A stretch of 63,984 nt of DNA from a virus (Duplodnaviria > Caudoviricetes): IMG/VR virus record IMGVR_UViG_3300007609_000018, positions 1-63,984 of that record. One strand, written 5' to 3'. The position numbers and the translations under genes were made by a program. Numbering within the stretch: the first letter of the stretch is position 1; every line of letters starts with the position of its first letter. The notes under the pieces are model-generated. The model was given only the letters and a program-made list of their open reading frames with translations, ran no database searches and was not told where the DNA came from. This document shows, one piece after another, positions 236-61,077 of the stretch.

Positions 236-262
236 GTTGTGTTTATTCAGTTGTTGTAAGTA
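236..262 (+). other. attI-like cassette boundary site (GTTGTGTTTATTCAGTT-GTTGTAAGTA)
   Basis: GTTGTAAGTA 253-262 is the exact reverse complement of TACTTACAAC 862-871; the upstream part resembles 57351-57370. Confidence 0.6.
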
Positions 263-268: not shown

Positions 269-847
269 TTAAAAAAGGGTAGGTGCATTTTTAAATCGGC
301 TCAATCTACCTTCTGCCATTTTAAAATACTTCTCGTTTAACTCACAGCCTATAAAGTTTCGCTCTTCCATTATTGCTGCTAATGCTGTACTTCCAGAACC
401 CATAAAAGGGTCAAAGATAGTATCACCTTGTTTAGTATTTTCTAACACCAATTTACGCATCAATGCCAACGGCTTTTGGCTTGGGTGGTCATAATATTCA
501 TCTTTTGCAAAACTCGCAGCTACTGTACTATTTATAAAGTAATGGTTATAAACTTTATAGGCTTTACCACCGTTTCTTTCTAATATAATTTCGTACATAG
601 AGCCTACACCACATTTTTTATCCCAAATATGTTTTGCTGTATAATCCAAAGGAAAGTCAACTTTAGCAGACCAAAAGATAATTTGAGGGCAATTATAATT
701 TTTAACCCAGTCTAATAATCCATCGTAATAATGGTATTCTTCTGCCATATAATCAGGGTATGGTGGGTCTGTTATAATTGCATCGAACTTTATCGTTGGC
801 AAAACATCTTCAAATCGCTTATTAAATAACTTTATTTCCATATTCAT
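269..847 (-). CDS. DNA N6-adenine/N4-cytosine methyltransferase (beta class)
   Basis: TDPPY catalytic motif, HPSQKP, DPFMGSGST SAM-binding motif. Confidence 0.92.
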   Translation of the reverse strand: MNMEIKLFNKRFEDVLPTIKFDAIITDPPYPDYMAEEYHYYDGLLDWVKNYNCPQIIFWSAKVDFPLDYTAKHIWDKKCGVGSMYEIILERNGGKAYKVYNHYFINSTVAASFAKDEYYDHPSQKPLALMRKLVLENTKQGDTIFDPFMGSGSTALAAIMEERNFIGCELNEKYFKMAEGRLSRFKNAPTLF

Positions 848-861
848 TTTTTTAATTTAAC

Positions 862-998
862 TACTTACAACAACGTATAAAGTTAATAGCTACTTTAAGC
901 GTGTTTAAGATGTTTATTTATTAATCTAAGTGCACTAGTGTACTTAATTAGGTTAGGTGCCTTAAACACGCTACTAACCTTATACAATTCCGTTACCG
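862..998 (+). repeat. attC-like imperfect inverted repeat #1
   Basis: TACAAC-aac-GTATAAAGTTAATAGC ... GCTACTAACCTTATAC-aattcc-GTTA; two A.C mismatches. Confidence 0.75.
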
Positions 999-1220
999 CC
1001 AATAATAAAGACGATACGATTGACCTCTTAACGAAGCATTGTTTTTGTCGCTTTCGTCTGAATTTTTACAACTTAATTTTGCTTTATCAAATTGATTTTT
1101 ATTTATCCTATTCTCAACTTGTTCGCTACCGATAAAATACCAATCTTCAAAATAAGCATTGTTTTTAAAAATCAATTTTTCACCTTTTGATAGTCGTTGT
1201 TCTATTTCATTTGCTTTCAT
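993..1220 (-). CDS. hypothetical protein
   Basis: 75-aa ORF co-oriented with its neighbours; stop codon overlaps the GTTA end of the attC-like site. Confidence 0.6.
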   Translation of the reverse strand: MKANEIEQRLSKGEKLIFKNNAYFEDWYFIGSEQVENRINKNQFDKAKLSCKNSDESDKNNASLRGQSYRLYYWR

Positions 1221-2600: not shown

Positions 2601-3377
2601 TTATTTAGTGAATAATAAACCTTCTTCGCTGAAAATTGCACCACTTCCAGTTCCGTCAGTTTGTAAAATTGTACCATTAGATGCGTTTATCCAAGTGCTA
2701 TCTGATTTGTCAGTAAATGATTTTACACCACCTTCAAAAATAATAGTGTCGGTTGTCGCAAATCTTATATTTCCAAAACTTTGAATATTAATTAAACTAT
2801 CACCTTGAATTGATAAATCTTCATTCGCTAAAATTAATAAATCTTCATTCGCTTTAATTAATAAATCTTTATTTGCTAATACATCTAGCTTTGATGTGTC
2901 AGTTACACTTATTGAGTTAAATTTTTGATTAGGAAAATCAACCCAACCTAAAGATGATACATCCCCAGCACCTAATATGTTTGCATCTACTATTCCTACT
3001 GTATTTATGAAATTTCCGTAGTCTTTGCCTTTAAATCCTATAAATGGCAAATCTAATCCTACGTTAATTGAGCTATTTAATAAAACAAAATCACCATTTT
3101 CACTTTTTACAACAGGTATATAAACACTTCCGTACTTTTCGTAGTATAAACTATCTTCTAAATTGAACAGAATAGACGCATCATTTGCATTTGCTACATT
3201 TGGAATGGTATCTACTGTTTCAAAATTGAAGTTTTGAATTTCATTACCCTCTAACGTTAGATTATCTCTCATTTTTGTTTGCCCATATATATCTACATTT
3301 TGAAAATATGGTGTCCAAGTTTGAGAATAAGTTATTGAAGTAATTAATACTGCTAATATTGTTAAGATTTTTTTCAT
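2601..3377 (-). CDS. signal-peptide-bearing beta-rich protein (tail fibre/spike-like repeats)
   Basis: MKKILTILAVLITSITYSQ Sec-type signal; ANKDLLIK-ANEDLLIL-ANEDLSIQ 8-aa repeats. Confidence 0.55.
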   Translation of the reverse strand: MKKILTILAVLITSITYSQTWTPYFQNVDIYGQTKMRDNLTLEGNEIQNFNFETVDTIPNVANANDASILFNLEDSLYYEKYGSVYIPVVKSENGDFVLLNSSINVGLDLPFIGFKGKDYGNFINTVGIVDANILGAGDVSSLGWVDFPNQKFNSISVTDTSKLDVLANKDLLIKANEDLLILANEDLSIQGDSLINIQSFGNIRFATTDTIIFEGGVKSFTDKSDSTWINASNGTILQTDGTGSGAIFSEEGLLFTK

Positions 3378-4084
3378 TTTAAATATGTTATTGTTCCTGT
3401 TAATGATTGCCCTAAAAAGTCAAATGTAATGGTTGTTCCATCATCTGATACTGTTGGGTTTATTTGTTGTCCTCCATCTAATACTATTCCATATATAGTT
3501 GGAAACCCTAACCCATGCTCTATCTCTACACTTGTTTCATTTGTAAAATCCAATGTTTCAAACGTGAAATTAGATGAACCTGCTGTCGATACTTCAGCAT
3601 TCGTTACATATATTCCAGAATTAGTTGCATCTATCAATATTGGTTTTATTGTTGAATTTTGAAACTGATAAAAGTTTACTTGTCCTACCGGTAAAACCCC
3701 ACCATCTACTTGTACGTTTGATGCCCCTATATTATTTATAGACCATTGAAGTTGTTTTCTGTAATCTTCTGGCTTGATTATGTAAACATCTTCATCATCT
3801 ACTGATGTTGCAAAAGCATCTTCTAAATAAACGTTCATACTGCCGTCATTTAAGCCGTCAAACCCCTTAACTAATGATAATTGACCGTTTGTCTTGTCTA
3901 AGATGTAAAACTCGCCTAAACGCAATGTTTCTGCAAAATCATAAGGCCAATCTGTTATCCGTAGAACTGAATCAACTTGTGCGTCAGATGTCATTTTTGC
4001 TGAAGGTACCTGTTCGCTTAATGGTAAAGTATTTATTTCCCCTGTTATACCGAACTGATTTGTGTTGTTTGAATTAATAATCAT
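3374..4084 (-). CDS. putative virion/tail-associated protein
   Basis: beta-rich acidic ORF; C-terminal IEHGLG...ITFDF...TGTI module typical of tail fibre domains. Confidence 0.5.
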   Translation of the reverse strand: MIINSNNTNQFGITGEINTLPLSEQVPSAKMTSDAQVDSVLRITDWPYDFAETLRLGEFYILDKTNGQLSLVKGFDGLNDGSMNVYLEDAFATSVDDEDVYIIKPEDYRKQLQWSINNIGASNVQVDGGVLPVGQVNFYQFQNSTIKPILIDATNSGIYVTNAEVSTAGSSNFTFETLDFTNETSVEIEHGLGFPTIYGIVLDGGQQINPTVSDDGTTITFDFLGQSLTGTITYLK

Positions 4085-35040: not shown

Positions 35041-35067
35041 TATTAACTATATTCGGTAGTTACCTAT
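35041..35067 (+). other. attI-like cassette boundary site
   Basis: TTAACTATATTCGGTA-GTTACCT; GTTACCT 35059-35065 is complementary to AGGTAAC 35982-35988. Confidence 0.55.
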
Positions 35068-35087: not shown

Positions 35088-35921
35088 CTAACTCAAACTC
35101 TGAAAAAAATGCTTAACAACTGTCACAGTCCATCCATTTCCTAAAAGGTTCTTTCTTATATTCTCACTATACCCTTTTGTATAGTCTTTTGGAATACCTT
35201 GCAATAACTCCCAATAACTACTGTTTGCCATATAAAATTCATTGTTTTTTTGGTAAAATATACTTGCAGATGTCGTTTGTCTATTTCCTGTTGATGTTAA
35301 TGTTGGTGCATTTTTCAATTCACTTAAATTATAAGGGTTAAAGAAGTTGGGTAATTTTTTAAACATAGATGTTTTTCTTTTAACAAAAGGAACAGGGTTT
35401 ACTTTATTAAATAATTCACTACTGAACTTAATTGGAATATTCTTTTTTTCATAATCTGTAAACGGTATATTAGTCCAGTAATACCTTGGTCTATTTTGCC
35501 CGGTAAAATACTTAGAGTTTATTTTTATTGGCTCAACACCTAATTTCTCGTTAATAATATTTAGCCATTCTTTTTTCATAGAAACATTTTCTAAAAAAAA
35601 ATATTTAGGTTTTAAAAATTCTTTTGCCTTTACAAACTCAAAAAACAACTTACTTCTTTTGTCGTAAAAATTTAATTGTTTACCAATACTACTAAACCCT
35701 TGACAGGGACTTCCACCTATTAATAAATCAATTTTTGGTAATTTATTTAATTTAGCAGAACAAACATCCCCCATTTGTTTGGTGCTTGGGTAATTTCTCA
35801 AAGTTACTTCTATCGCTTTTTTATCTATTTCATAAGCAAAATAATTATCTATTTTTATATTTAATTTGTCTAAAGCAATTTGCCCACAACTGATTCCATC
35901 AAAATAGCTTACTACATTCAT
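35088..35921 (-). CDS. DNA (cytosine-5)-methyltransferase
   Basis: SYFDGI, GGSPCQGFS, LENV, QNRPRYYW, LGNGW motifs. Confidence 0.92.
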   Translation of the reverse strand: MNVVSYFDGISCGQIALDKLNIKIDNYFAYEIDKKAIEVTLRNYPSTKQMGDVCSAKLNKLPKIDLLIGGSPCQGFSSIGKQLNFYDKRSKLFFEFVKAKEFLKPKYFFLENVSMKKEWLNIINEKLGVEPIKINSKYFTGQNRPRYYWTNIPFTDYEKKNIPIKFSSELFNKVNPVPFVKRKTSMFKKLPNFFNPYNLSELKNAPTLTSTGNRQTTSASIFYQKNNEFYMANSSYWELLQGIPKDYTKGYSENIRKNLLGNGWTVTVVKHFFQSLS

Positions 35922-35979
35922 TTTATTTATGTTTTATTTGCCCTCGTACATCACGCAGGGCGGTTTTAAAAAATTACAG

Positions 35980-36078
35980 ACAGGTAACAATGTATATAAA
36001 AAATAGCTACTTTCAGTTGTCAAGTAATCCTTAACAACTGCTCTTTTATATCGCTACTTTACATACACAATAAAGTTT
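35980..36078 (+). repeat. attC-like imperfect inverted repeat #2
   Basis: GGTAAC-aat-GTATATAAAAAATAGC ... GCTACTTTACATACAC-aataaa-GTT. Confidence 0.7.
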
Positions 36079-36147
36079 AAAAACACAGAGGCAATTCAAC
36101 AACCTAAACCAAACTTTAAAAAAACATGACGAAAAACCGCCCCTGTG

Positions 36148-36434: not shown

Positions 36435-37070
36435 TTATTTAACAGATAACAACCTATCAATTCCTATTGCAAACCCTACTCCTCCATCATACTCTCCTCC
36501 TCCACAAATCTGTTTTGAACTTCCTAATTTATCATAAACAATTTCAAAACCTTTACCATCTTTATAGTAGTCCAACCCCCTACTTACGTTTCTATTTACT
36601 TTAAAACCCTCTATTCCAAAATATTTAATCAAATCTATTGAAATAGAAATTAAATATTCCAAAAGATCGCTTTTTGGATTTATTACTTCAACACCTAATT
36701 GTGTAAATTGCCTATATCTTCCGGCTTGTGGCCTTTCCCCTCTAAAACATTCTTGAACATAAAATAAATTAACATCTTTTTCATACTTAAATTGAGTTTT
36801 TGATAATTTCTGAATAACAGATGTATATTCTGGTGCAAGACAAATATTTCTATTTCCTCTATCAGTAAAGTTAAACATTAAATTATTATTTTCTACACCC
36901 ACTTTATCTTCAAATATATCTTGCATTTGAATAATTGGTATTGATATTTCTTGAAACCCATGGCTTGTTAAATATGTAGCCATATCAGAAATTACACTTC
37001 TTTTCTCATTTCCTAAAAGTATTCTTGTTCCTTTGTAAGTTGTCTTTTTAATCTCTAACATATTTCTCAA
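36435..37070 (-). CDS. stand-alone histidyl-tRNA synthetase catalytic core (no anticodon-binding or insertion domain)
   Basis: KGTR, GFQEISIPI (motif 1), LAPEYT, FRGERPQAGRYRQFTQLGVE (motif 2), RGLDYY, GGGEYD, GFAIGIDRL (motif 3); only 211 aa. Confidence 0.88.
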   Translation of the reverse strand: MRNMLEIKKTTYKGTRILLGNEKRSVISDMATYLTSHGFQEISIPIIQMQDIFEDKVGVENNNLMFNFTDRGNRNICLAPEYTSVIQKLSKTQFKYEKDVNLFYVQECFRGERPQAGRYRQFTQLGVEVINPKSDLLEYLISISIDLIKYFGIEGFKVNRNVSRGLDYYKDGKGFEIVYDKLGSSKQICGGGEYDGGVGFAIGIDRLLSVK

Positions 37071-37702: not shown

Positions 37703-37894
37703 CTACAATTCTATTTTTATACTAACAACAATATGTGTGCTTGGCCATTCACTATCCTCACGTTCAATATGAACTTCACAATCATCAATCAATAAATCAT
37801 TTTCTTCCTCGAAATCTTTTATCAATCTTTCAATTTGGTTAGAAAGTTTTATTCTTTTTTTTCTTATTTCTTCTATTGTCTTAGACATACTCAA
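37703..37894 (-). CDS. hypothetical protein
   Basis: 63-aa ORF in operon. Confidence 0.55.
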   Translation of the reverse strand: MSMSKTIEEIRKKRIKLSNQIERLIKDFEEENDLLIDDCEVHIEREDSEWPSTHIVVSIKIEL

Positions 37895-38441
37895 TTACCC
37901 CCACTATGTTATTCCTATTTACTCTAAAAACATCTGTATCACCCATTATCTCACTATGAGCAAATGGTACATCACAATCTACTTCCGTTGCTATATGCTG
38001 CCCTTTCTCAAACCCATATCCATCATACAAAACTTTAAACTGATTTTTCTTATACCCTGGCTTTAACTCTAACTCTGAAACTCTCTTCTCTTCTATCTTC
38101 TCACACAAAACATAATCATTTATAAACACCGTTTTTCCTTCTCGTTTAACAAAAAACAATGATTCTTTATGCAAGATCGCTTTACGCTTTCTATCTTCCC
38201 CAACAGAATATTTATAATCAATTATCCTATTCTCTTCCTTGGCCCGAATAGTCGCTAAATAATGAAAATAAACTTCATCCCCCTCTAATACTTCCGGATT
38301 ACCACTCTCTAAACAAATCCCCTTAATTGGCGCATACTTACATGGCTCATAACTCGTAGCAATGTAAATCCCAGAATCAGTTTTCATCTCATTCTCCGTA
38401 TCTACAAACTCAACCAATATGTTCTCGTGTAATAATTGCAT
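37881..38441 (-). CDS. GroES-like co-chaperonin with tandem domains
   Basis: LHENILVE...KTDSGIYI...GDEVYF, then a second NDYVLCEKI...NIVGVI repeat. Confidence 0.65.
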   Translation of the reverse strand: MQLLHENILVEFVDTENEMKTDSGIYIATSYEPCKYAPIKGICLESGNPEVLEGDEVYFHYLATIRAKEENRIIDYKYSVGEDRKRKAILHKESLFFVKREGKTVFINDYVLCEKIEEKRVSELELKPGYKKNQFKVLYDGYGFEKGQHIATEVDCDVPFAHSEIMGDTDVFRVNRNNIVGVIEYV

Positions 38442-46965: not shown

Positions 46966-47276
46966 AAATAGCATACATAGCACATCCAATATCTGGTAAT
47001 GAAGAAGAAAACATTAAGAAAGTAATATCTATTGTAAGGGAAATTAATTTATCACAAAAAGGAATACTTCCCTTTGCACCTTATATAGTTGATTTAAAAG
47101 CCTTAGATGATTCAAGCCCAACAGAACGTATGATAGGTATAACAAACAATCAAGAATACTTTATGCGTGGAATTATAGACGAACTTTGGGTTTATGGAAT
47201 AAGTCCTGGAGTAAAACAAGAAATAGAACTAGCAAAAAGGTTTAACATTAAAATAGTTTACAAAAATTCACTTTGA
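46962..47276 (+). CDS. DUF4406/nucleoside 2-deoxyribosyltransferase-like protein
   Basis: YIAHPISG...PFAP...DELWVYG.S.GVKQEIELA motif. Confidence 0.7.
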   Translation: MKIAYIAHPISGNEEENIKKVISIVREINLSQKGILPFAPYIVDLKALDDSSPTERMIGITNNQEYFMRGIIDELWVYGISPGVKQEIELAKRFNIKIVYKNSL

Positions 47277-47804
47277 AGCATTGTGTTTAATATCAAACTC
47301 TTTTAAAGAACTTTCTAAGCAACCTTCAGCACCAATTTTATTCCAAAATAATGTAAAGTCTTTTTTAACACTTGATAGGTTTATTTGTATTTTCTTATCC
47401 TTATCTTTTAAAAAGTGTTCAATATTATTGTTTACAGTATCTATGTAATCATAACACACCTGCTTTTTGTCAGATACTTTAACATTCATTCTAATCAATC
47501 TTCCAAATGATTGTGCTATGCTTACAGGGTTGGTATATCTTTTTAAAAAACTATTACAAACCAAATCTCTATCTCTTATTAGGTGAACATAAAAAGCATC
47601 GTTTCCAAACATCTTATCTAATGTTCCTAAGTGCCAACTCAATCTGTTATCTGATTCAATATGATAATCTGAATAGTTAAATCTGTTTATTCCAAATTCT
47701 CTTGCCAAACTTTCATGTCCAGATGTGTAATTTTTAATGTGTTTACAGGCCTTAAATATTGTAGTTGAACCACACCTACCTGTACTTAGTATAAACACTC
47801 TCAT
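47268..47804 (-). CDS. sulfotransferase-like P-loop protein
   Basis: N-terminal FILSTGRCGSTT (PAPS-binding loop), HES, VHLIRD...SF. Confidence 0.7.
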   Translation of the reverse strand: MRVFILSTGRCGSTTIFKACKHIKNYTSGHESLAREFGINRFNYSDYHIESDNRLSWHLGTLDKMFGNDAFYVHLIRDRDLVCNSFLKRYTNPVSIAQSFGRLIRMNVKVSDKKQVCYDYIDTVNNNIEHFLKDKDKKIQINLSSVKKDFTLFWNKIGAEGCLESSLKEFDIKHNASK

Positions 47805-47820
47805 AGAGCTAATTTACCAT

Positions 47821-48087
47821 TTAAAATTTATTCATAACTTTTAAATGAACTTCTTTTAAATATTCTTTAGTTAGTTTTTCTTCGTCAGAACCAAAATCAG
47901 CTTTGTTATGACAACTTCTACACAATGCTTGTAAGTTCTCTATGTAATCTTTAGTTTTAGATCCACCCATACCTCGAGGAGATATATGGTGTATATCAAC
48001 AGCTTTATTATTACAAACTTCACAAGGAATATGCTCTCCTGGATAGTAACCAAAGTATTCGTGATATATTTTAACGTGTTTTTTCAT
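47821..48087 (-). CDS. HNH endonuclease
   Basis: CEVC...DIHHI..RGMGG...NLQALCRSCH. Confidence 0.85.
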   Translation of the reverse strand: MKKHVKIYHEYFGYYPGEHIPCEVCNNKAVDIHHISPRGMGGSKTKDYIENLQALCRSCHNKADFGSDEEKLTKEYLKEVHLKVMNKF

Positions 48088-48103
48088 AGTTCTTAAAATT
48101 ACA

Positions 48104-48129
48104 AAAGCCAGATGATTAGTCTGGCTTTA
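48104..48129 (-). terminator. possible rho-independent terminator
   Basis: AAAGCCAGA-loop-TCTGGCTTT hairpin. Confidence 0.45.
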
Positions 48130-48383
48130 CACAAAAAAGAAGTAATACACATAAATAGTGGATTGTGAAGTTCAAATTTAACTCCTTCTTTTTATTATTT
48201 AATACAAAATTTTTCATAGGAATTGACTAAAATTTAGTCTTTAATTCAGCAAGGTAAATCCACATTTTCTCTATTGCAGGTTTTAGTTTTTCAGCTTCAA
48301 AATCTTTCTTTTTATCTCTTAACTGATAATAAATACTTTCGTGCAATCCTATTGATTGTCTTAATCTTTGATACTTAGTCTTG

Positions 48384-48596
48384 TTATCCATTATTCATAG
48401 CTTTGTTTAAAATTGTATTACTTACTCGTTCTTTTACCTTTCCATTGTCAAGGTTTACAATATCATTATAGACTGCTCCCGTTTGCTCATCTTTATATGT
48501 TCCTTTCACTAAAAATGTTACCCCTTTAGATTTAAATAGTAATACTGAAGGATATGGTATTCCATTTTTATCCTTGTATTTGGTTTGTTTTTTCAT
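48384..48596 (-). CDS. hypothetical protein
   Basis: coupled to the primase stop codon. Confidence 0.55.
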   Translation of the reverse strand: MKKQTKYKDKNGIPYPSVLLFKSKGVTFLVKGTYKDEQTGAVYNDIVNLDNGKVKERVSNTILNKAMNNG

Positions 48597-50281
48597 AAAC
48601 TATTCAACGTTTTCATTAATTCATTCATTTTATCAAAATCTTCTGGTGTTTCTACTACCATTGATTCTATTACTTTTGGCAACTCTATCCTCAAGTAGTT
48701 GTTTACTACATCTTTACAATCCCTAATTATGTAGTGTATATCCTCTGTAAGCGACTTTATTTGTTTTTTAGATGATAGTGTAGGGGTGTTTAATAAAACC
48801 TCGCTACAACCCTTTATATTGGAAACAAACCAATCGGTGTTTTTATACTCTTCAGTCATTTCCATTTCAAAGTAAGCATTATTTATATTTTTTAGTAACT
48901 CATTGTCTAATTTAACATAAGGTTCTACTGAACCCATTATTACTTTTATGAATGGACCTTTATCGTCTAACATCCATCCGTACTCTATCATTACTCTTGC
49001 CAACTCTTCATAGTGATTGTTTAGTTTTTGTGTTTGTACAGGTGTTTTTGATTTACTTACCTGGCCTTTATTTACATACTCACTAAACATTTGTTCGCTT
49101 ATTCCAAATAGTCTTGCCGATTCCTTTATGTAAACGCTTTTCTTTATGCCATCTGTAATTAATCTTAATAACTCTACTACTTCTTTTATCTTTTCGGTCC
49201 TTTTAGACGGTTCGCTTGTATATTGCCTTTTGTTTTGATCTGTTTTAAACACTAAGAAATCTTTTTTATTATCTCTAAGGTATTCTTTAAATCCACCTTT
49301 TGCGACCATGCTGTCCGGGTCTTGCTTGTTTGGGAGTATAACTACCTTAACATCAAAATCTTCTTCTAAGGCTATCTGTATGCCCTTTTCAATAGCTTTT
49401 AAACCTGCTACATCTCCATCAAGTAAAAATGTTATATTCTTACTAAATCTACCTATCATTGAAAGCTGACCTTTAGTCAATGAAGTTCCAGAACTACTTA
49501 CTACATTTTCTATACCCCCTTGGGCCATGCTTATTACATCTGTATATCCCTCAACTATATAGCACTCGTTTAGTTTAACTATTGAATCTTTTGCGTGATA
49601 CAATCCATATACATCTTTTGACTTGTTGTAAATTTCTGTGTTCCTACTGTTAAGATATTTTGGTGCTTTTTTATTTTCTTTAATTATTCTACCTCCAAAC
49701 CCACATACCTTTCCAGATAAAGTAAATATTGGAACTGTGGCTCTATTTCTAAAAAAATCATTTCCTTTAGAGTTTAGCAATGATGCTTGTTCCATTAATT
49801 TTCTATCAAAGTTTAGTGTATTTATATCATCACTTGCAAACCCTAATCTAAACTTGTTTATGGTTTCTGCATTATATCCTCGATCAATCCAATACGATAT
49901 ATCTTTTGATTGAAAATGTAAACAAACAGATTCGTGTATTGAATATAAGTTTTCTGAAACTTGTCTTTTCTTTCTTTCTTCTTCAGATATTTCTTCTTCA
50001 AATGGTAAATCAAACTTTTCACAAATCCACTTTATAGCTTCTGGATAAGTAAATCTTTCGTGTTCCATTACAAACCCTACCTTGTTGCCACTCTTACCGC
50101 ACCCAAAACATTTATATATGCCTTTAGAGGGCGATACTACAAATGATGGTGTGTTCTCATTGTGAAACGGACAACAAGCCTTATAGTTACTCCCATTGCG
50201 TTTTAATGACACAAATTCAGATACTATTGAATATATATCTGTATTGTCAAAAACTTTATCTATTGTTGATTTCGCTATCAT
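48593..50281 (-). CDS. dnaG: DNA primase
   Basis: CPFH..CFGC CHC2 zinc finger, KYLNS, VEGYTDV, DGDVAG, DPD Toprim motifs. Confidence 0.95.
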   Translation of the reverse strand: MIAKSTIDKVFDNTDIYSIVSEFVSLKRNGSNYKACCPFHNENTPSFVVSPSKGIYKCFGCGKSGNKVGFVMEHERFTYPEAIKWICEKFDLPFEEEISEEERKKRQVSENLYSIHESVCLHFQSKDISYWIDRGYNAETINKFRLGFASDDINTLNFDRKLMEQASLLNSKGNDFFRNRATVPIFTLSGKVCGFGGRIIKENKKAPKYLNSRNTEIYNKSKDVYGLYHAKDSIVKLNECYIVEGYTDVISMAQGGIENVVSSSGTSLTKGQLSMIGRFSKNITFLLDGDVAGLKAIEKGIQIALEEDFDVKVVILPNKQDPDSMVAKGGFKEYLRDNKKDFLVFKTDQNKRQYTSEPSKRTEKIKEVVELLRLITDGIKKSVYIKESARLFGISEQMFSEYVNKGQVSKSKTPVQTQKLNNHYEELARVMIEYGWMLDDKGPFIKVIMGSVEPYVKLDNELLKNINNAYFEMEMTEEYKNTDWFVSNIKGCSEVLLNTPTLSSKKQIKSLTEDIHYIIRDCKDVVNNYLRIELPKVIESMVVETPEDFDKMNELMKTLNSL

Positions 50282-50363
50282 TTAGTCTTATACCTTACAA
50301 AGTGGGTAAATTCAGAATTGTCTTGTAGCTTTCCTTGACTACATATTTCTGCTTTCATTCCAC

Positions 50364-50582
50364 CTATTTTTCTAAGGAATTTTTGATAGGCTTTTCTTGA
50401 TTTGACTTTTTTCGTTTTCTCCCACATAAAACTACTTTTTTAAATGTTAAACTTTTATCGTTACTGTATTTTAGCTGATGTCTTAAAAACCAATTTTCCA
50501 ATATATGTTTCATTGGGTATCTTTTGGTTTCTATTAATTTATCGTCTTTGTATATTCTTAGCAAATATTTGTTATTTTTCAT
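50364..50582 (-). CDS. hypothetical protein
   Basis: basic 72-aa ORF. Confidence 0.45.
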   Translation of the reverse strand: MKNNKYLLRIYKDDKLIETKRYPMKHILENWFLRHQLKYSNDKSLTFKKVVLCGRKRKKSNQEKPIKNSLEK

Positions 50583-50729
50583 TTTTTCCGTTTAAGCAAT
50601 TCTTGCAAATTCCTAACTGTTCAGAGTTTGGGTTCTTTTTGCAGAATACGCAGTATTGTTTATTTTTCATAATTCTCTAAAGTCTTAATAATCTTATCAA
50701 GTGTATCAATAGTTGAAATTATTTATATA

Positions 50730-51269
50730 CTAATATCTCTTATCTGTCCAATGAATTAATTGACCTGTACAATTACCTTGAAACCAATCCCAAAAGTCCT
50801 CTACGTTATCAAACCCATCGTTTACCGCCAATTCCTGTACTTCTTCATCACTCAATTCTCTTCCATCTATGGTTATATTTCTAAATGGACCTATCTCTGA
50901 ATCAATATTAATTAATTCATAGTCTTGAACAGATACACAAGGAATAATCGGTGCAAAATTAAATGTTTTACTCTTGTATGGCTTTCCTTTCCAAATCTTA
51001 AAGTGTATGTCCATTCCTGCTCTCCATCTGTTTCCAGAACGCATTGTGTGTATTTTAGGCTTACACTCTACATCTAAAAAATCTTCTTGCCCAATAATTT
51101 TTAAATAATCGGATGCATAATCAAGGGCGATAAACTCTGCGAACTGTTCTAAAGTTAATGTTAGATGTTCTAAATCATAAAATCCACTATACACCTTTTC
51201 TACAAAATATGTAAGTTCTCCTGCTCTTGGGTGTCCTGCTAAATACTTTCTTGTTAAATTAATTGTCAT
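50730..51269 (-). CDS. ASCH/PUA-like domain protein
   Basis: KIHTMR...RWRAG...LAVNDGFDN.EDFWDWF pattern. Confidence 0.6.
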   Translation of the reverse strand: MTINLTRKYLAGHPRAGELTYFVEKVYSGFYDLEHLTLTLEQFAEFIALDYASDYLKIIGQEDFLDVECKPKIHTMRSGNRWRAGMDIHFKIWKGKPYKSKTFNFAPIIPCVSVQDYELINIDSEIGPFRNITIDGRELSDEEVQELAVNDGFDNVEDFWDWFQGNCTGQLIHWTDKRY

Positions 51270-51271
51270 AA

Positions 51272-51499
51272 CTATTTAATTTTGTTCTTAAAATAACGCT
51301 CTAAGGCGATTGAAATAATAAACCCTATACCAAATATGCCTAAGTGTATAATAACCTCTCTAAACTTAATTAAAGTGCCAAATACATGGTAAGAAGTGTT
51401 TGCTGCAATTACAATAAATATCTGTACTGCAAATAATACCTTGAATATCTTGCATACTAAATATTTTTGAGTGTAATATTCTATCTGTTCTGGTTTCAT
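51272..51499 (-). CDS. small 2-TM membrane protein
   Basis: two hydrophobic segments. Confidence 0.55.
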   Translation of the reverse strand: MKPEQIEYYTQKYLVCKIFKVLFAVQIFIVIAANTSYHVFGTLIKFREVIIHLGIFGIGFIISIALERYFKNKIK

Positions 51500-52602
51500 A
51501 ACTTTAGTTTTTTAATTATTTTTGCTAATACGTTTACAACTATACTATTACCTGCTTGTATATACATTTGAGTATTGCTACAAGGTATTTTGAATGTATC
51601 TGGAAAGTCCATTAGTCTGAAACACTCTCTTGGTGTTAATCTTCTCACCTTGTTTTCTATTAAATACTGTCCTGCTTTATCATTGCAATTTCCACCACTT
51701 CCCATAAGTGTCCTGCCAATTGTTGTAGAGCTGTAAATCCTTCTACTAAAATCGTTATATTTTTCATTAGGCAACATACCGATAACTTTTAATTCAATTG
51801 AATTGTCAGTAGGGCATAATGCACCATTTGCTCTTAAAGCATTTGCAACATCATCTTCTGTTTTAGGTTGCCATTTAAACCCAGTTCCTTTTTTTTCGTG
51901 TCGGTCTTTATGATTTATAAATCCTTTTATCAATGTTTCACTCAAAAAATACTTTTCATCAACATCATCTTCTAAAACATCTTTTAGTCTTTTTGTTAAT
52001 GGAAATGGTTTTGGAAAGCTAAAGACATTATCCTTATCATCACGTATTCCAATTATAAACACTCGTTCTCGGTTTTGTGGAACTCCATAGTCTTTTGCAT
52101 TTAAAACTCTATGGTATATATGATATGGTACTGAATCTTCTCTCGGAAATATTATAGGATTTCCATTTACACTCTTTCCGCCTAACATATCTATCCACGT
52201 ATTAAAAGTTTTACCATAAGTAGCGTTCTTGTATTTCTTGTTATCTGAAAGCAATCCTTTTACGTTCTCAAATATGAAAAATCTTGGTTTGTTTACTTTT
52301 ATAAATTCGTGGCTATTGTAAAACAATATTCCTCTTTTATCATCTTCTCCACCACGTTTACCGGCTAAACTGAAACTTTGACATGGAGGCGATGTAACGT
52401 ATATATCTAAAGGTTTGGCAGGAATTTCTCTGTCATAAACATTCAAAGGATAGTATGCAGGCTCTCCATAATTTTCTATATATGTCTGTCGTGCATACTT
52501 ATCCATATCACAAGCAAAAATTGTTTTAAACTTTATGCCTAATCTCATCAATGCTTGTTCAAATGCCCCTACTCCAGAAAAATCACTACCTACTTCAATC
52601 AT
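51496..52602 (-). CDS. DNA (cytosine-5)-methyltransferase
   Basis: FSGVG, SPPCQSFS, FENVKG, PQNRERVF, RRLTPREC, QAGNSI motifs. Confidence 0.95.
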   Translation of the reverse strand: MIEVGSDFSGVGAFEQALMRLGIKFKTIFACDMDKYARQTYIENYGEPAYYPLNVYDREIPAKPLDIYVTSPPCQSFSLAGKRGGEDDKRGILFYNSHEFIKVNKPRFFIFENVKGLLSDNKKYKNATYGKTFNTWIDMLGGKSVNGNPIIFPREDSVPYHIYHRVLNAKDYGVPQNRERVFIIGIRDDKDNVFSFPKPFPLTKRLKDVLEDDVDEKYFLSETLIKGFINHKDRHEKKGTGFKWQPKTEDDVANALRANGALCPTDNSIELKVIGMLPNEKYNDFSRRIYSSTTIGRTLMGSGGNCNDKAGQYLIENKVRRLTPRECFRLMDFPDTFKIPCSNTQMYIQAGNSIVVNVLAKIIKKLKL

Positions 52603-52796
52603 TACTGATACCCTCCTTCATCTGTTCTTCCTGGTGGTACATTCATACCACTATTCATAAAATTATCATAGCCTGGATGGTCTGATGGTGCTTTGGCTAC
52701 TTTATCTACTTCAAGCATTTTATCCATTGCAGTTTTTGCATCTAAATTCCCTTTCTTGTATTCGTCTAATACTTCTCTAATCTTATTGTTTTCCAT
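52602..52796 (-). CDS. hypothetical protein
   Basis: coupled small ORF. Confidence 0.55.
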   Translation of the reverse strand: MENNKIREVLDEYKKGNLDAKTAMDKMLEVDKVAKAPSDHPGYDNFMNSGMNVPPGRTDEGGYQ

Positions 52797-52797
52797 A

Positions 52798-53883
52798 TTA
52801 ATTTTCTTTTATAAATGTTACTAAATCTTTTATTTCTTGTATAGTTGCTTGCTCGTAGAAATCTCTTGCATTTTCATACTTTAATCCTATTGTTGCAATA
52901 GCGGTTTCTATTTGGTCCTTGTCTTTTATATCTATGCCTTTTAAAGCATTGTATATTGACATATACTCTTTTTTATCTCGAACTACTCCTTCAGTAAGTT
53001 TTAAATCATCTATAAAAGATAAATCAATGACTTCTTCAAACTCTGCATCTTCTACTTGGTTCTTCTTGTCAATCTTTTCAGTTCCTCTCTTGATTACGTT
53101 TTCTACATCTTTTGCAGTTGATTCATTGGTTTTAATCTTTTTACCACCACGTTCTATCATTTCATCTTTTGGATCTGCTTCATCTACTAAATTCATTAAC
53201 TGTCCAACTCTATCTGCGTGTGCTGTGTTTTTAGGCAATACTTTCCAAAGAAGTCTTATCCCTGTTTTCTTAATCATCTCCCCTAAGTGTACTCCTGTCC
53301 AAAGTGAATTGTTTTTATTACTCTTGTAAGATTGAGATGTATTTCTAATTTCCCATATTCTTTCAATTGGTGTAAATAAACATTGCTTTGTTCCATCACT
53401 AAGTAAACAAGTTGCTAATACACCATACTCTTTGCCTCTTTTGCTTGCACTAAGTCCTTTAGCGTAATATGGTTTATATTTTATTAAATCATCAAAAGCG
53501 TAATCATATTCAAAATCATCGTTTTCATAAATAACGTGAGCATTTGGTTTTTTTGCTATACCTAATACTTCCATCATTGTAATTAATCCTTTGTAGTCTG
53601 GGTCAAGGCAACACTCAACTACTTTTCCTTTTTTTCTTGGAACTAAGTGCGCTTGTTGCAGTACAGGATTCAAACTTAATCCAGATAGTGCTACGTTAAG
53701 TATAGCCTTTTTTGCACTCTCTGGTGTGCAGCTTGCTAAATAACTGTTTGATTGAAACGCCTGTAAAGCATACCCAACTTCTTTCTTAAATGCTATTTGC
53801 GTTTCTTTAGGCAAATAACTTACAAATTCTCTTTTTACATCTTCTGATGCAATTTCACTCTTTAATTTTACTATGTTACTCAT
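52798..53883 (-). CDS. recT: RecT-family single-strand annealing protein
   Basis: GLSLNPVLQQAHLVPR...YKGL...W...EMIKKTGIR....LP. Confidence 0.85.
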   Translation of the reverse strand: MSNIVKLKSEIASEDVKREFVSYLPKETQIAFKKEVGYALQAFQSNSYLASCTPESAKKAILNVALSGLSLNPVLQQAHLVPRKKGKVVECCLDPDYKGLITMMEVLGIAKKPNAHVIYENDDFEYDYAFDDLIKYKPYYAKGLSASKRGKEYGVLATCLLSDGTKQCLFTPIERIWEIRNTSQSYKSNKNNSLWTGVHLGEMIKKTGIRLLWKVLPKNTAHADRVGQLMNLVDEADPKDEMIERGGKKIKTNESTAKDVENVIKRGTEKIDKKNQVEDAEFEEVIDLSFIDDLKLTEGVVRDKKEYMSIYNALKGIDIKDKDQIETAIATIGLKYENARDFYEQATIQEIKDLVTFIKEN

Positions 53884-53934
53884 AACTTTTTTGTTTTAAA
53901 ATGGTTAATTAATTTTATTTATAGACGTTTATGT

Positions 53935-53965
53935 TTTATCTTTTGTATATTTTATAGTTAGCTAC
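53935..53965 (+). other. attI-like cassette boundary site
   Basis: TTTTGTATATTTTATA-GTTAGCTAC; near-complement of GTGGCTAAC 54165-54173. Confidence 0.5.
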
Positions 53966-54152
53966 AATTATCCAACGCACGTTCTATCGTGTAAAAACCT
54001 AACCTATCACCATTTACTATTTTCCTGCATTTAGTTTCAAAATCCCTCTCGTCTTGCCCTAACACAATATAACCGCTGAACTCTCTCACTATTGGTGCTT
54101 TGTGCTTTACGTTATTAATTGCTTGTTCAATTTGTTTATCTGTATATGCCAT
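53958..54152 (-). CDS. hypothetical cassette protein
   Basis: 64 aa; stop codon is the TAA of the boundary core. Confidence 0.6.
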   Translation of the reverse strand: MAYTDKQIEQAINNVKHKAPIVREFSGYIVLGQDERDFETKCRKIVNGDRLGFYTIERALDNCS

Positions 54153-54164
54153 AGCTCTTTAAAA

Positions 54165-54260
54165 GTGGCTAACACAAAATATAGTGAATAGCCGATTAAA
54201 CATTTATTTCAATAGCCAAGTTTTAGGTGTCGGCTACTCACCATACATTCAACGTTATAA
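54165..54260 (+). repeat. attC-like imperfect inverted repeat #4
   Basis: GCTAAC-acaaaa-TATAGTGAATAGCCG ... CGGCTACTCACCATA-cattcaac-GTTATAA. Confidence 0.75.
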
Positions 54261-54803
54261 AAACTTTTCTATTTGTTTATATTGTGCCGTTTTCATTCCT
54301 GCATGTGCTATTGCTATACAATCGCAAATATGCTCCATTCTTGCTTTAATTAAATCGCCTTTCTTATTCCTTTCATAAGGAAAGTTTGGATAATTAGTTT
54401 CTACCCACTTCATCATATCGTCTTTACTTGCATTTATTCTTCCAACAGTAGCTTTTTTTACCTCCGTTGGTGTTACTTGTATTGCATCTGGCTTTAATAA
54501 TGCTATAAACGCACAACTCAACCCGTAGCTTTTCATGCCGTTTGAACTTTGACTTCCACTTGGTGTTTCTGCAAATGTAATAATTGGCTTGATTTCTTCT
54601 GTTTTAGCGAATATCTCGTCTATTACTTGCTTGGCTCTAGATACTGTGTCAGAACTTGCTCTAATCTGCTTATTTTTAGTTTTTTCAGTTTTAACTAAAC
54701 TCCAATCTTGAGGTACAAACTTACCATTCTCTATTACACCCCAAACAAATCCTGTATTTGCCATACTAGGGTCTATTACTAAAACTCTTGTTTCTTTACT
54801 CAT
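54255..54803 (-). CDS. ruvC: RuvC-like Holliday junction resolvase
   Basis: VIDPSMANTG, FAETP, TPTEVKKA...ASKDDM, EHICDCIAIA. Confidence 0.8.
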   Translation of the reverse strand: MSKETRVLVIDPSMANTGFVWGVIENGKFVPQDWSLVKTEKTKNKQIRASSDTVSRAKQVIDEIFAKTEEIKPIITFAETPSGSQSSNGMKSYGLSCAFIALLKPDAIQVTPTEVKKATVGRINASKDDMMKWVETNYPNFPYERNKKGDLIKARMEHICDCIAIAHAGMKTAQYKQIEKFL

Positions 54804-54806
54804 AGC

Positions 54807-55547
54807 TTATTTAATTAATTCTTTAACAATATTCTTTGTGTGTATTGGAAACGAACTTTTGAGCATCCAATTTAGAAACCCTGGTTCATCATACACGGAC
54901 TTATCTTTGTGCTTTCCAATATTAAATCTAACAATACCTTTTTCATCTTCATAGAATGCACTACAAAATTTGTATGGTTTCTTTTTAGCAAAGAAGTAAT
55001 CACTTATTTCTTTTTTAGTTAAATGGCCTGTATCATTTAAAGTAAATACATCTCTTTGTTTGCTTAATATTTCTAAAGTAGCGTTACAATCCCCTAATGC
55101 TGAATGTGAGTTTTCCATTTCTTTTCCAAAATATCTACTATACACCCCAGATAGTGTTTGAGGATTTAACTCTTTCTCTATTTCGTAGCTATCTAAGACG
55201 TTTAAACCGTCAAGCGACCATTCTATACCACACCTTAAAAATTCTTCTATTAGAAGTGGAATATCGAACCTTTTACAATTATATCCTGCTATGTCGCAAT
55301 ATTTAATGGATTCATACAAGCTATTTGCTATTTGTGAAAATGTAGGACAATCTATTACATCTTCATTGCTTATGCTATGAACTTCGGTAGCTTCTTCTGG
55401 AATTGATATAGTAGGATTAATCTTTCTTACCTTTTCTTCCTTATCTCCGTTTTCAAATATTTTAATAAATCCAAACTCTACAATTCTATCTTTTGCAATG
55501 TCTGTTCCTGTTGTTTCTAAATCGAATATTACTAATGGTCTGCTCAT
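54807..55547 (-). CDS. DnaQ-like 3'-5' exonuclease (DEDDh)
   Basis: FDLETTG, GYNCKRFD, HSALGD motifs; start MSRPLV at 55547 couples with the upstream stop. Confidence 0.9.
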   Translation of the reverse strand: MSRPLVIFDLETTGTDIAKDRIVEFGFIKIFENGDKEEKVRKINPTISIPEEATEVHSISNEDVIDCPTFSQIANSLYESIKYCDIAGYNCKRFDIPLLIEEFLRCGIEWSLDGLNVLDSYEIEKELNPQTLSGVYSRYFGKEMENSHSALGDCNATLEILSKQRDVFTLNDTGHLTKKEISDYFFAKKKPYKFCSAFYEDEKGIVRFNIGKHKDKSVYDEPGFLNWMLKSSFPIHTKNIVKELIK

Positions 55548-55906
55548 AATGTTAGTTCTTTTTGTGTTAGTGCAAAATATAGGTTTTGAAGTTGGTGTAC
55601 ATATTGTATATTGCATAATGTATCAGACTTGTAATAAACGTACCATAAACCATTAATATATCCTATATTGTAAACGCTTGATTCCCAAAAATCATATCCA
55701 TATCCTAATTTCTTAAATCGAAATTTCAACAACCATTCTTCTATTAGTGGTATTCCAAATATTTCATCTTCACTACAATCAATATCATCAGAACCGCTTT
55801 CGTCAGAAGATAATTCTGCCCCTCCTTTCCAAATACGATACACATATTGAACTATACCAAACTCGTCTTGCACCCAATTACCTATCCTTAATTCTTTTGC
55901 TTTCAT
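55544..55906 (-). CDS. hypothetical phage protein (ELRIGN / YVHQLQNLYFAL family)
   Basis: terminal motifs recalled from Bacteroidetes phage proteins. Confidence 0.65.
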   Translation of the reverse strand: MKAKELRIGNWVQDEFGIVQYVYRIWKGGAELSSDESGSDDIDCSEDEIFGIPLIEEWLLKFRFKKLGYGYDFWESSVYNIGYINGLWYVYYKSDTLCNIQYVHQLQNLYFALTQKELTL

Positions 55907-55907
55907 A

Positions 55908-57350: not shown

Positions 57351-57377
57351 GTTGTTTATATTCAGATGTTACCTGCC
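57351..57377 (+). other. attI-like cassette boundary site
   Basis: GTTGTTTATATTCAGAT-GTTACCTGCC; 57368-57377 is the exact complement of GGCAGGTAAC 57591-57600. Confidence 0.65.
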
Positions 57378-57378
57378 A

Positions 57379-57645
57379 TTATACAGCAGACAGGCTATTC
57401 CAAGTTTTTAATATTGTGAACTTATACCAAGCTCTATCAAAATAATAGCCTTTCTTTGCAAGTATAAGTTCAATCAAATGTTGTTCGGCTTCTTTTTCAG
57501 TTTCAAACCCTTCTTTAGGTTGTTCATCAATCGTTTTCACATCTCTACTACCAATATTTCCAACTTGGTAATAAACGTAAATAAAATAACGGCAGGTAAC
57601 AGCACCTATATTCAATAGCGGTTTTTGTGGTTCATTTGAGTTCAT
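57379..57645 (-). CDS. hypothetical cassette protein, start codon inside attC-like site
   Basis: N-terminal MNSNEPQKPLLNIGAV is encoded by the hairpin. Confidence 0.6.
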   Translation of the reverse strand: MNSNEPQKPLLNIGAVTCRYFIYVYYQVGNIGSRDVKTIDEQPKEGFETEKEAEQHLIELILAKKGYYFDRAWYKFTILKTWNSLSAV

Positions 57646-57725
57646 ATTTTCTAATTTAATTTTGTGAATAATTCAAGTTTTGTACTTCTAAGTTCGCAAC
57701 TAAATATAGCTGCGAACCGTTATAG
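57591..57725 (+). repeat. attC-like imperfect inverted repeat #5
   Basis: GGTAAC-agcac-CTATATTCAATAGCG ... CGCAACTAAATATAG-ctgcgaacc-GTTATAG. Confidence 0.75.
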
Positions 57726-58085
57726 GTCATTCATCTCCCAACCTTTACAGCTTGCAATTTTATTTGAAAGAGCAAGAATTTCATCGGTGTTGTAAACCAC
57801 ATAAAGTGCGTCATCTTCAAATAAGCCATCACGCTGACCGCATTCAAAGTCAAGTTTAAATTCAGTTTTTTCTTTTTGGCCTTTATCGAGTATATCAAAA
57901 AAATTACCATAAGAATTTGCATCAACATTTCCAATTAAATCTTCATAAAAAAAGTCTATTGGCTCATCTCCATTAAAAATCGTATCATTCTTAATTTTAA
58001 GCCCTGTAAAAATACAAGGTTCATATTTTGAATAAAGCGTTCCACTTGGGAGTTTATAAAATTCTTGTTTAGTAACTATTCTCAT
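57720..58085 (-). CDS. hypothetical cassette protein
   Basis: 121 aa, bounded by GTTATAGG 57719 and CCTATAAT 58104. Confidence 0.65.
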   Translation of the reverse strand: MRIVTKQEFYKLPSGTLYSKYEPCIFTGLKIKNDTIFNGDEPIDFFYEDLIGNVDANSYGNFFDILDKGQKEKTEFKLDFECGQRDGLFEDDALYVVYNTDEILALSNKIASCKGWEMNDL

Positions 58086-58101
58086 TATTTCTAAGTAAAA
58101 C

Positions 58102-58233
58102 GCCCTATAATAAAGTGTATAGCAAATTGTGGGCGTGTTACAGTTTGCTACTTTGTACCTTTAACTTAATGCTTTGCAAGCTGTTAGGTAGATACTTTTA
58201 ATCCCACAACTTGCCATATTCAAATCGTTACCC
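58102..58233 (+). repeat. attC-like imperfect inverted repeat #6 (AAC core changed to AAT)
   Basis: CTATAAT-aaagtg-TATAGCAAATTGTGGG ... CCCACAACTTGCCATA-ttcaaatc-GTTA. Confidence 0.75.
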
Positions 58234-58239
58234 GTAATA

Positions 58240-58653
58240 CTATCTACGGAATAATCTAACACCGTCTACTTCTTCAAAATCTAAATCTCTTACTTTGCTT
58301 AAAACAGAATTTCCAAATTCAGAAAGTTTATCGTACAATTCCTTTAAGCGATTTTCATCCTCTCTATTATCACATAATTCTACCCATCTTCTTATAAGTT
58401 CTCTGTTTAATTCTGGGTGGTTTAATGAGTTGTTTTTAAGTTTATGAAATTCTGCACTCCAATATGCTACCGTATCGCTTATTTGTTTTACTTTCATTTC
58501 AAGTGGGTAGCATCTATCGCTTACATCACTACTTACTAACCTAAGCACTCCATCACTAACACTTGTAATTCTGTTTTCCTCTGTTTCCATTATTTGTTGA
58601 AGTTTGAAATCACAGAAACACCAATCTTCTTTTTTAAACTTTAAATTTTTCAT
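58240..58653 (-). CDS. hypothetical protein
   Basis: 137-aa ORF between the two arrays. Confidence 0.65.
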   Translation of the reverse strand: MKNLKFKKEDWCFCDFKLQQIMETEENRITSVSDGVLRLVSSDVSDRCYPLEMKVKQISDTVAYWSAEFHKLKNNSLNHPELNRELIRRWVELCDNREDENRLKELYDKLSEFGNSVLSKVRDLDFEEVDGVRLFRR

Positions 58654-58669: not shown

Positions 58670-58697
58670 GTTGTTTATTATTAGATTTTAGCAGTAA
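58670..58697 (+). other. degenerate attI-like boundary site
   Basis: GTTGTTTATTATTAGAT-TTTAGCAGTA versus GTTGGCAGTA expected from the complement of 58973-58982. Confidence 0.4.
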
Positions 58698-58700
58698 TAG

Positions 58701-59033
58701 CTACTCACTACCGTTAAACCTTAGTGGTTGCTTACCCAATAGTGCAATCATTTCTTCGGTTCGTTTCTCGTTATACTCTTGGTATTCTTTAGGTGTCATT
58801 AACTTATAACCATCGCTTTCAAATACTTGAAACCTTTTTCGTAGTTTCTTATTAATCCAAGAGTAATAACGTTCCCAACTATCTAAATCTCTTGGCTTAA
58901 ACATATCTCCTGCCGTATCAATATCGTCAAGTAATTCCCAAAGAAATTCGGCTTGCTTTCTGTCAATTTTACTACTGCCAACAACAGGTGTAGTGCATTG
59001 CTCTGTTTTGTTCTTTTTGCTATCGTCTTTCAT
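58701..59033 (-). CDS. hypothetical cassette protein, start codon inside attC-like site
   Basis: N-terminal MKDDSKKNKTEQCTTPVV is encoded by the hairpin. Confidence 0.6.
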   Translation of the reverse strand: MKDDSKKNKTEQCTTPVVGSSKIDRKQAEFLWELLDDIDTAGDMFKPRDLDSWERYYSWINKKLRKRFQVFESDGYKLMTPKEYQEYNEKRTEEMIALLGKQPLRFNGSE

Positions 59034-59106
59034 TTATCTAGATTTAAGTGTTACTAATTAAGTTCGTGCTGTAAGGTTGTCACACACCATACCCAAAACG
59101 TTATAC
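58974..59106 (+). repeat. attC-like imperfect inverted repeat #7
   Basis: GCCAAC-aaca-GGTGTAGTGCATTGC ... GTCACACACCATACC-caaaac-GTTATAC. Confidence 0.6.
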
Positions 59107-59112
59107 TCAACG

Positions 59113-61076: not shown

Positions 61077-61077
61077 G

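Follow-up and report, generated by a model that had tools for sequence, protein, structure and literature searches.

The hairpin at positions 862-998 of the phage contig studied here, and the five further sites named with it in the original prediction, were confirmed as members of one structured hairpin family. Very probably these hairpins are recombination sites of an attC-like, structure-specific kind, belonging to a cassette system that resembles integrons, is native to Bacteroidota and works with an Xer-like enzyme lacking the integron-integrase insert. Two G.T wobble pairs, held at fixed places in the helix of the favoured strand, apparently replace the bulged bases of classical integron sites.

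The window analysed was the whole virus contig of 63,984 bp, which is rated complete, has a G+C content of ~31% and carries most of its genes on the - strand. Its gene set comprises a DnaB-like helicase, a primase, RecT, a RecE/YqaJ-like exonuclease, a RuvC-like resolvase, an exonuclease, three DNA methyltransferases and very long structural ORFs. Tyrosine recombinases were absent from the window, both in a PF00589 search and with the bacterial array-type enzyme as query; no Y1 transposase match was obtained among the 30 window ORFs scanned against Pfam, and no tRNA genes were found in the window. DNA similarity of the contig to deposited phages was limited to one 300-bp stretch, shared with Cellulophaga phage phi18:3. 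As megablast of positions 47000-63984 against phages returned this 300-bp cassette only, there was no close relative for a comparison of filled and empty sites. Among viral contigs, no relatives were found of the RecE-like protein or of the 121-aa cargo protein described below, and relatives of the 64-aa cargo protein were found in phi18:3 and one other contig only. Three further ORFs, all on the - strand, were recorded during annotation. A 211-aa ORF (36435-37070) has a match to the core domains of class II aminoacyl-tRNA synthetases (tRNA-synt_His, 7.2e-19) and is far below the length of the full enzyme; a 186-aa ORF (37881-38441) has a weak Cpn10 (co-chaperonin) match, barely past the Pfam cut-off (E 2.4e-4); and the third DNA methyltransferase (C5, 368 aa, 51496-52602) has no adjoining hairpin, unlike the other two.

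A covariance model, R1, was built on the - strand from a hand-checked alignment (A2) of eight sites, six from the window and one each from phi18:3 and phi17:1, with a hand-written structure of a 4-bp foot and a 17-bp helix. Searching the window with R1 gave exactly six sites, all on the - strand, at 76-112 bits (table 1), with no seventh - strand site at E<0.01. The + strand reading of the same places scored 14-21 bits in four, and the other two were absent among the matches listed. The folded layout consists of the 4-bp foot (TAAC/GTTA), an asymmetric internal loop (4-6 vs 2 nt), the 17-bp helix and a variable tip. An inverted-repeat finder missed the six hairpins because of their mismatches. 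Three of the sites lie inside 1.5 kb (57587-59111), in a window that encodes no integrase.

Table 1. Hairpin sites, cargo ORFs and terminal half-sites in the window.
Feature	Position	Strand	Remarks
Terminal half-site, cassette 1	253..262	-	TACTTACAAC; perfect 10-nt complement of site 1 3' box
Cargo of site 1	269..847	-	N6/N4 DNA methyltransferase, 192 aa; PF01555 3.2e-24, phrog_67
Hairpin site 1	858..1003	-	R1 112.1 bits; matches the named site 862-998; layout: 5' box ..GGTAAC, 5-nt spacer, 17-bp helix with two G.T, variable inner hairpin, 2-nt spacer, 3' box GTTGTAAGTA
Terminal half-site, cassette 2	35059..35065	-	AGGTAAC; 7-nt complement of site 2 3' box, 24 nt past stop
Cargo of site 2	35088..35921	-	C5 cytosine DNA methyltransferase, 277 aa; PF00145 5.1e-32, phrog_116
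Hairpin site 2	35975..36087	-	R1 76.3 bits
Terminal half-site, cassette 3	53957..53962	-	GCTAAC; 6-nt complement of 3' box; holds cargo stop codon
Cargo of site 3	53958..54152	-	64-aa ORF; hairpin + ORF 86.5% identical to phi18:3 gp106, unrelated context
Hairpin site 3	54160..54265	-	R1 84.6 bits
Terminal half-site, cassette 4	57368..57377	-	GGCAGGTAAC; perfect 10-nt complement of site 4 3' box
Cargo of site 4	57379..57645	-	88-aa ORF, start inside hairpin loop
Hairpin site 4	57587..57730	-	R1 107.2 bits; inner G.T only, outer pair A-T
Cargo of site 5	57720..58085	-	121-aa ORF; phrog_11827; 50% identical to phi17:1 gp7
Hairpin site 5	58098..58238	-	R1 105 bits; 3' box ATTATAGG
137-aa ORF between remnant and site 5	58240..58653	-	no family
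Loop-less remnant	58690..58719	-	5' box + 5' arm fused to 3'-arm-like stretch; below R1 threshold, read by eye
110-aa ORF, start inside loop of site 6	58701..59033	-	no Pfam or PHROG match
Hairpin site 6	58969..59111	-	R1 100.4 bits; first in three-site cluster

The sites had been predicted to hold top-strand A.C mismatches, equivalent to G.T wobbles on the bottom strand, at fixed places amid covarying arms, and this was borne out by alignment A2. The inner wobble pair was G.U in 8/8 sites and the outer in 7/8, the exception being site 4, at 57591, for which only A15.C had been read. The wobbles sit five pairs apart, each - strand G.T corresponding to a + strand A.C mismatch. The numbering A10 and A15 from the AAC core holds for the site at 862; at the other sites the hand alignment gives a better register when counting starts from the helix end TAGC/GCTA, which puts the wobbles at positions -4 and -9. 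Around the wobbles, 12 of the 17 main-helix pairs were changed on both sides in A2. Pairing was found in 89.9% of its cells, compared with 76.5% in shuffled alignments, none of 500 of which reached 89.9%, and sliding the partner by 1-3 columns reduced pairing to 29-49%.

The covariation also held in larger alignments. Among 22 distinct phage sites, 13/17 helix pairs were changed on both sides, with G.U at the inner wobble in 22/22 and at the outer in 20/22; among 58 distinct bacterial sites, 15/17 helix pairs were changed on both sides, with G.U at the inner wobble in 57/58 and at the outer in 37/58. These G.U counts lean upwards, as the larger alignments (A3-A7) were fitted to a model that rewards G.U at both wobble pairs; G.U at the outer pair is not imposed by the model, since that pair still varies among bacterial sites. 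In the phage sites the pairs between the two wobbles take four to six pair types, and 93-94% of cells pair across the phage and bacterial site alignments. The A-U, A-U and C-G pairs of the foot were present in 22/22, 22/22 and 20/22 phage sites and in 58/58, 58/58 and 57/58 bacterial sites, respectively, the outer bases of the core sites fitting the RYYYAAC/GTTRRRY consensus in part only. The right-hand spacer, expected to be 2-4 nt longer than the left, was so in 6/6 window sites (4-6 nt on the right of the + strand, which is the 5' side of the - strand, vs 2 nt), and the asymmetry was repeated in three alignments (22, 9 and 58 sites).

Both strands were folded, and the bottom (-) strand folded better, as had been proposed. 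With DNA parameters, which handle G.T crudely, the energy of the consensus stem on the - strand minus that on the + strand was -2.6, -6.6, -2.4, -2.1, -3.4 and -1.7 kcal/mol at the six window sites, a preference of 1.7-6.6 kcal/mol at 6/6. Over 30 sites the consensus stem was better on the wobble strand in 26 with DNA parameters (mean -2.15 kcal/mol) and in 28 with RNA parameters (mean -7.7 kcal/mol). The bias in whole-site minimum free energy was weaker because the variable tips fold on both strands: the wobble strand was better in 21/28 sites with DNA parameters (mean -0.9 kcal/mol; the - strand was favoured at 5/6 window sites) and in 22/28 with RNA parameters (mean -5.6).

The cargo adjoining the window sites consists of two DNA methyltransferases and four small ORFs. 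In 4/6 window cassettes a lone half-site following the cargo complements the 3' foot of the hairpin, over 10, 10, 7 and 6 nt, at distances of up to 605 nt from the hairpin. The half-site of cassette 1 lies directly 3' of the methyltransferase stop codon and its 10-mer has no second copy on the contig's coding strand; that of cassette 4 lies 6 nt past the stop codon and its 10-mer is unique in the contig. The AGGTAAC 7-mer of cassette 2 occurs seven times in the contig and is weaker evidence. Downstream of site 6 no complementary half-site was found. The 5'-foot box now present matches the 3' box of its own hairpin over 0-4 nt only. Since the half-site complements the 3' box and the current 5' box barely does, circularisation of such a unit would restore a long foot, in keeping with the logic of integron cassettes. 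The 3' box of site 5 (ATTATAGG) also complements the 5' box of site 4 at 7/8 positions. At 3/6 sites the stop codon of the preceding gene lies in the 5' box (TAA|C), the genes being ORF 993-1220 (site 1), the RuvC-like gene 54255-54803 (site 3) and the cargo ORF of site 5 (site 4).

The two window ORFs that start in a hairpin loop read through the 3' arm and 3' box, as do phi19:3 gp030 and gp033. The cargo ORF of site 4 was compared with phi17:1 gp6 and was unrelated. ORF 63566-63826 ends in a stop codon overlapped by a lone GGTAAC box (63565-63570); this box has no hairpin close by and may be a further cassette junction or target site.

Searches of other phages with R1 gave four sites in phi18:3, two in phi17:1, one in phi4:1 and two in phi19:1; in partial loci, three were found in phi19:3, five in phi13:2 and two in phi46:3, with a third phi46:3 site in another search. 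Polaribacter phage P12002L contained eight family members at E<0.005, and methyltransferase genes are flanked by several of these. No site at E<=0.001 was obtained in Nekkels_1, phi13:1 and phiST, which are three of the five other Cellulophaga phages searched.

Comparison of shared segments located the cassette ends. Homology between window positions 53953-54253 and phi18:3 begins at the hairpin's TAAC, spans the 64-aa ORF and stops at the lone GCTAAC, with unrelated flanks; in phi18:3 this 300-bp unit sits among structural genes. The phi18:3 copy of site 3 has a diverged 5' arm that pairs less well, and its 3' half is 100% identical. Phages phi19:3 and phi13:2 have a unit of hairpin and ORF in common, with 99% identity but a different place in each array; it starts at AAC and ends at the next TAACGG. 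Lastly, a hairpin together with the beginning of a methyltransferase gene recurs in phi18:3 and Polaribacter phage P12002S, at 90% identity from TAAC on. The junction thus lay at the core at both ends in two cassettes and at the left end in a third, at a resolution too coarse to place the cut within TAAC. These limits of homology define the mobile unit as the hairpin plus the ORF downstream of it, and its junctions fall in the wobble strand's 5' box. Ordinary homologous recombination also shuffles these regions, since phi19:3 and phi13:2 have a further segment in common whose ends lie away from any box.

A clean empty site was sought, and not found, in the variable region that follows the gp108-like gene of phi18:3. 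The phi17:1 locus was rejected as junction evidence: a direct repeat of ~180 bp (L002, 2800-2990 and 3770-3950), which includes the start of gp5, brackets the two genes and hairpin gp7-hairpin-gp6, suggests insertion by duplication rather than at the core site, and is uninformative on the hairpin junction. The 130-aa gp108 of phi18:3 (L001, 6583-7000) shows 90-92% DNA identity across six or more Cellulophaga phages from different genera, including phi4:1, Nekkels_1, phi19:1, phi13:1 and phiST, and is another widely exchanged module; in phi46:3 a hairpin begins exactly at the stop codon of the gp108-like gene. In phi18:3, phi19:3, phi13:2 and phi46:3 (L010-L013) a conserved gene for a 428-aa tyrosine recombinase is immediately preceded by a hypervariable array of small genes in the same orientation, with two to five hairpin sites. 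This Pachyviridae enzyme was considered as a candidate partner of the hairpins and not retained; it is of a generic phage integrase type (PF00589 + SAM_5) with a weak XerD match and no IntI match. When used as a query it gave one distant bacterial relative.

Bacterial relatives of the hairpins were sought in 151 genomes of one order, reached via one bacterial locus in a Bacteroidetes MAG. Sites at E<=1e-4 were found in 60/151 genomes, with no more than 21 candidates scored per genome; some of these sites may lie in prophages. No genome of the 151 had a match to TIGR02249 (integron integrase) above the cut-off. Many of them encode an ORF of 360-394 aa that matches TIGR02249 in two pieces (model positions 5-181 and 239-314), model positions 182-238 being missing from the array-linked enzyme. 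Two such recombinases scored 187-197 bits against TIGR02249, compared with a cut-off of 265, and scored equally well or better against Xer models. By numbering alone, the missing segment would map approximately to the part of VchIntIA, residues 209-241, that contacts two extrahelical bases (PMC3053210).

Sites and recombinase were associated across genomes (40 carried both, 20 had sites but no such recombinase, 23 had the recombinase but no site, and 68 lacked the two; odds ratio 5.9, P=6.7e-7). Eighteen site-recombinase pairs lay within 15 kb of each other, in 12 genomes, and in 16 of these pairs the site was downstream of the recombinase gene with its wobble strand opposite to the gene. Thirteen of 35 - strand recombinase genes end within 600 nt of the contig start, as expected if a repeat array comes after the gene. 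In one locus (L049) the gene for a 372-aa recombinase (2839-3957) is followed by at least six units of ORF then hairpin over 14 kb, and in another (L052) a recombinase gene is followed by three such units. The suggestion of a distinct recombinase family is supported by this placement of bacterial sites just downstream of an Xer-like enzyme with a two-piece match to TIGR02249 below the cut-off. Genome G016:C1 (L049 and L050) carries two recombinase copies, 97% identical, each with its own hairpin array, ~1 Mb apart.

Orientation of the cargo was counted from crude calls of the flanking ORFs. On this count the wobble strand was the coding strand for 50/54 flanking ORFs in phages and was opposite to 90/105 in bacterial loci. 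All flanking ORFs were on the folding strand at 26/30 phage sites, the unit being hairpin then ORF, and all were opposite at 42/56 bacterial sites having a flanking ORF. Read along the wobble strand the order was always AA|C, hairpin, cargo, ...TAA, with the cargo antisense in bacteria and sense in phages. As the relation to the coding strand flips between phage and bacteria, the polarity of the wobbles follows the junction and not transcription.

Set against classical attC sites and IntI (class 1 and Vibrio chromosomal integrons), the family has in common an imperfect palindrome, AAC...GTT cores, an unpaired spacer between foot and second helix, a variable tip, one favoured strand, the AA|C = G|TT junction and cassette arrays; the classical crossover on the attC bottom strand is AA|C = G|TT, in a G|TTRRRY junction (PMC9892861 section 3.4). 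The order of cargo then site is shared by the bacterial relatives, whose loci have the classical layout except that the recombinase gene stands upstream of the array, co-oriented with the cargo. The phage units depart from the classical cassette, in which top-strand cargo precedes attC, by carrying folding-strand cargo downstream of the site. As had been foreseen, the geometry is unlike that of proteobacterial attC: there is no bulged base in the 17-bp helix, and instead of extrahelical bases the family has two fixed G.T pairs, a loop of 4-6 vs 2 nt and a second helix of 17 bp. The partner enzyme differs from IntI in being Xer-like and in lacking a segment that probably corresponds to the part of IntI contacting the extrahelical bases.

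Three other groups of described elements resemble the family in one respect or another. Clusters of attC without an integrase (CALINs) were reported by Qi et al. 2023 in virulent phages, including P12002L with two methyltransferases, and IntI1 recombined one P12002L site with attI1 on the bottom strand only (PMC9892861). As in the present case, attC-like sites stand around methyltransferase genes in a phage that lacks an integrase, and the published P12002L sites are likely to be members of the hairpin family; in the available part of that report they are treated as classical attC, with no description of wobbles, an Xer-like partner or reversed cargo. The rAID-1 arrays of gut Bacteroidales (Ross et al.) combine an XerD-family recombinase with integron-like intergenic repeats, the criterion being >44% identity to the Bacteroides fragilis rAID-1 recombinase (10.1101/471110). 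A similar layout, in which an Xer-like recombinase heads a co-oriented array with repeated intergenic sites, was seen in 16/18 bacterial pairs, and the window has the sites and no recombinase. The rAID-1 arrays belong to another order and carry immunity genes, and no folded-strand anatomy is given in the available part of their report (10.1101/471110). Bacteroidota are placed among the phyla with integrons in a review (PMC8618304). Beyond the CALINs and rAID-1 arrays as partial precedents, the literature search returned nothing on G.T wobbles in attC or on an Xer-type hairpin system in Bacteroidota, and no paper on the folded-strand anatomy of the hairpin family. IS200/IS605 and REP/RAYT elements also use strand-specific single-stranded DNA hairpins, with HUH enzymes and insertion beside a short target word. 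HUH elements have two short hairpins, one per end, and a Y1 transposase; the present family differs in having a single long hairpin, in which the opposite end of the cassette completes the foot, and a link to a tyrosine recombinase.

Other explanations of the hairpins were weighed against this evidence. Ordinary integron attC sites, served by IntI and picked up by the phage from an integron of its host, would account for the invariant AAC...GTT cores (22/22), for boxes such as GCTAAC/GTTAGC that fit RYYYAAC/GTTRRRY, for the calling of a CALIN in P12002L by generic attC finders and for the activity of IntI1 on one site of that phage (PMC9892861). Such an origin is nevertheless very unlikely: the sites have no extrahelical base, whereas the folded bottom strand of classical sites has two on one side (T-N6-G type), which are recognised by IntI (PMC3053210), the integron integrase model passed its cut-off in none of the 151 genomes, the array-linked enzyme lacks the same stretch of that model, and phage cargo has the orientation opposite to that of a classical cassette. 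A role in RNA alone, as phage mRNA structures (processing sites, stabilisers or translation controls) in which DNA plays no part, is highly improbable, even though G.U is normal in RNA, the wobble strand codes nearly all the phage flanking ORFs, the strand bias is larger with RNA parameters, start codons stand close behind the 3' box and two ORFs start in the loop. An RNA-only role had been named in advance as grounds for giving up the recombination reading, and it is contradicted by the bacterial loci, where the wobble strand is not the sense strand. Moreover, AA|C junctions and half-sites lying hundreds of nucleotides away would be useless to an RNA hairpin, no Rfam match at gathering score was found in the window, and 53800-59300 contained no terminator-like site vs 1.7 expected, promoter-like sites also being fewer than expected. 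In phages the hairpins may have an added RNA role.

The remaining alternative dispenses with a site-specific enzyme and takes the hairpins for linker repeats or MITE-like elements that offer homology for RecET recombination between co-infecting phages. The phage does encode RecT and a RecE-like exonuclease, the off-box segment of phi19:3 and phi13:2 fits such exchange, and the identical 3' half and diverged 5' half of the phi18:3 copy suggest a breakpoint inside the loop. However, the arms covary and are not conserved, and thus have little homology on offer; junctions fell at the core in three comparisons; the 10-nt half-site complements are unique; and the bacterial sites are tightly linked to a tyrosine recombinase in position and orientation. 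This was judged the least probable of the three, with hardly any weight left to it.

On the preferred reading, that of attC-like recombination sites, each site would fold as a single strand, and only the - strand of the window would make the full helix. The original view of the sites as single-stranded hairpin substrates resembling attC bottom strands gains support from the limits of homology at the AAC core and from the half-site complements, and single-stranded DNA would be the recombination substrate. Exchange would take place in the 5' box of the wobble strand (AA|C), making the cassette C + hairpin + cargo + ...TAA, and a free circle would rebuild the long foot from the two ends of the cassette. 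In a phage without a recombinase, cassettes would be moved by an enzyme of the host or of a co-infecting element, acting in trans on the phage sites, and the G.T wobbles may serve as the signal for strand choice. A more specific proposal is put forward tentatively, as possible and somewhat short of probable: the wobbles and the asymmetric loop would do the job of the extrahelical bases, telling an Xer-like recombinase without the IntI insert which strand to fold and cut, and Bacteroidota phages would keep their own pool of cassettes with cargo sense on the folding strand, dropped in at stop-codon TAA|C by a recombinase borrowed from the host.

The standard example of recombination on a folded single strand is the integron, in which the choice of strand is attributed to extrahelical bases recognised by a domain that IntI alone possesses. 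The hairpin family retains core sequences, junction and cassette logic without bulges or the IntI domain, and so provides a natural experiment on what the integron mechanism needs. Through it, anti-restriction genes, represented here by two methyltransferases, move in cassette form among marine phages that are unrelated and infect Cellulophaga and Polaribacter, and phage accessory genes may be exchanged site-specifically as well as by general recombination.
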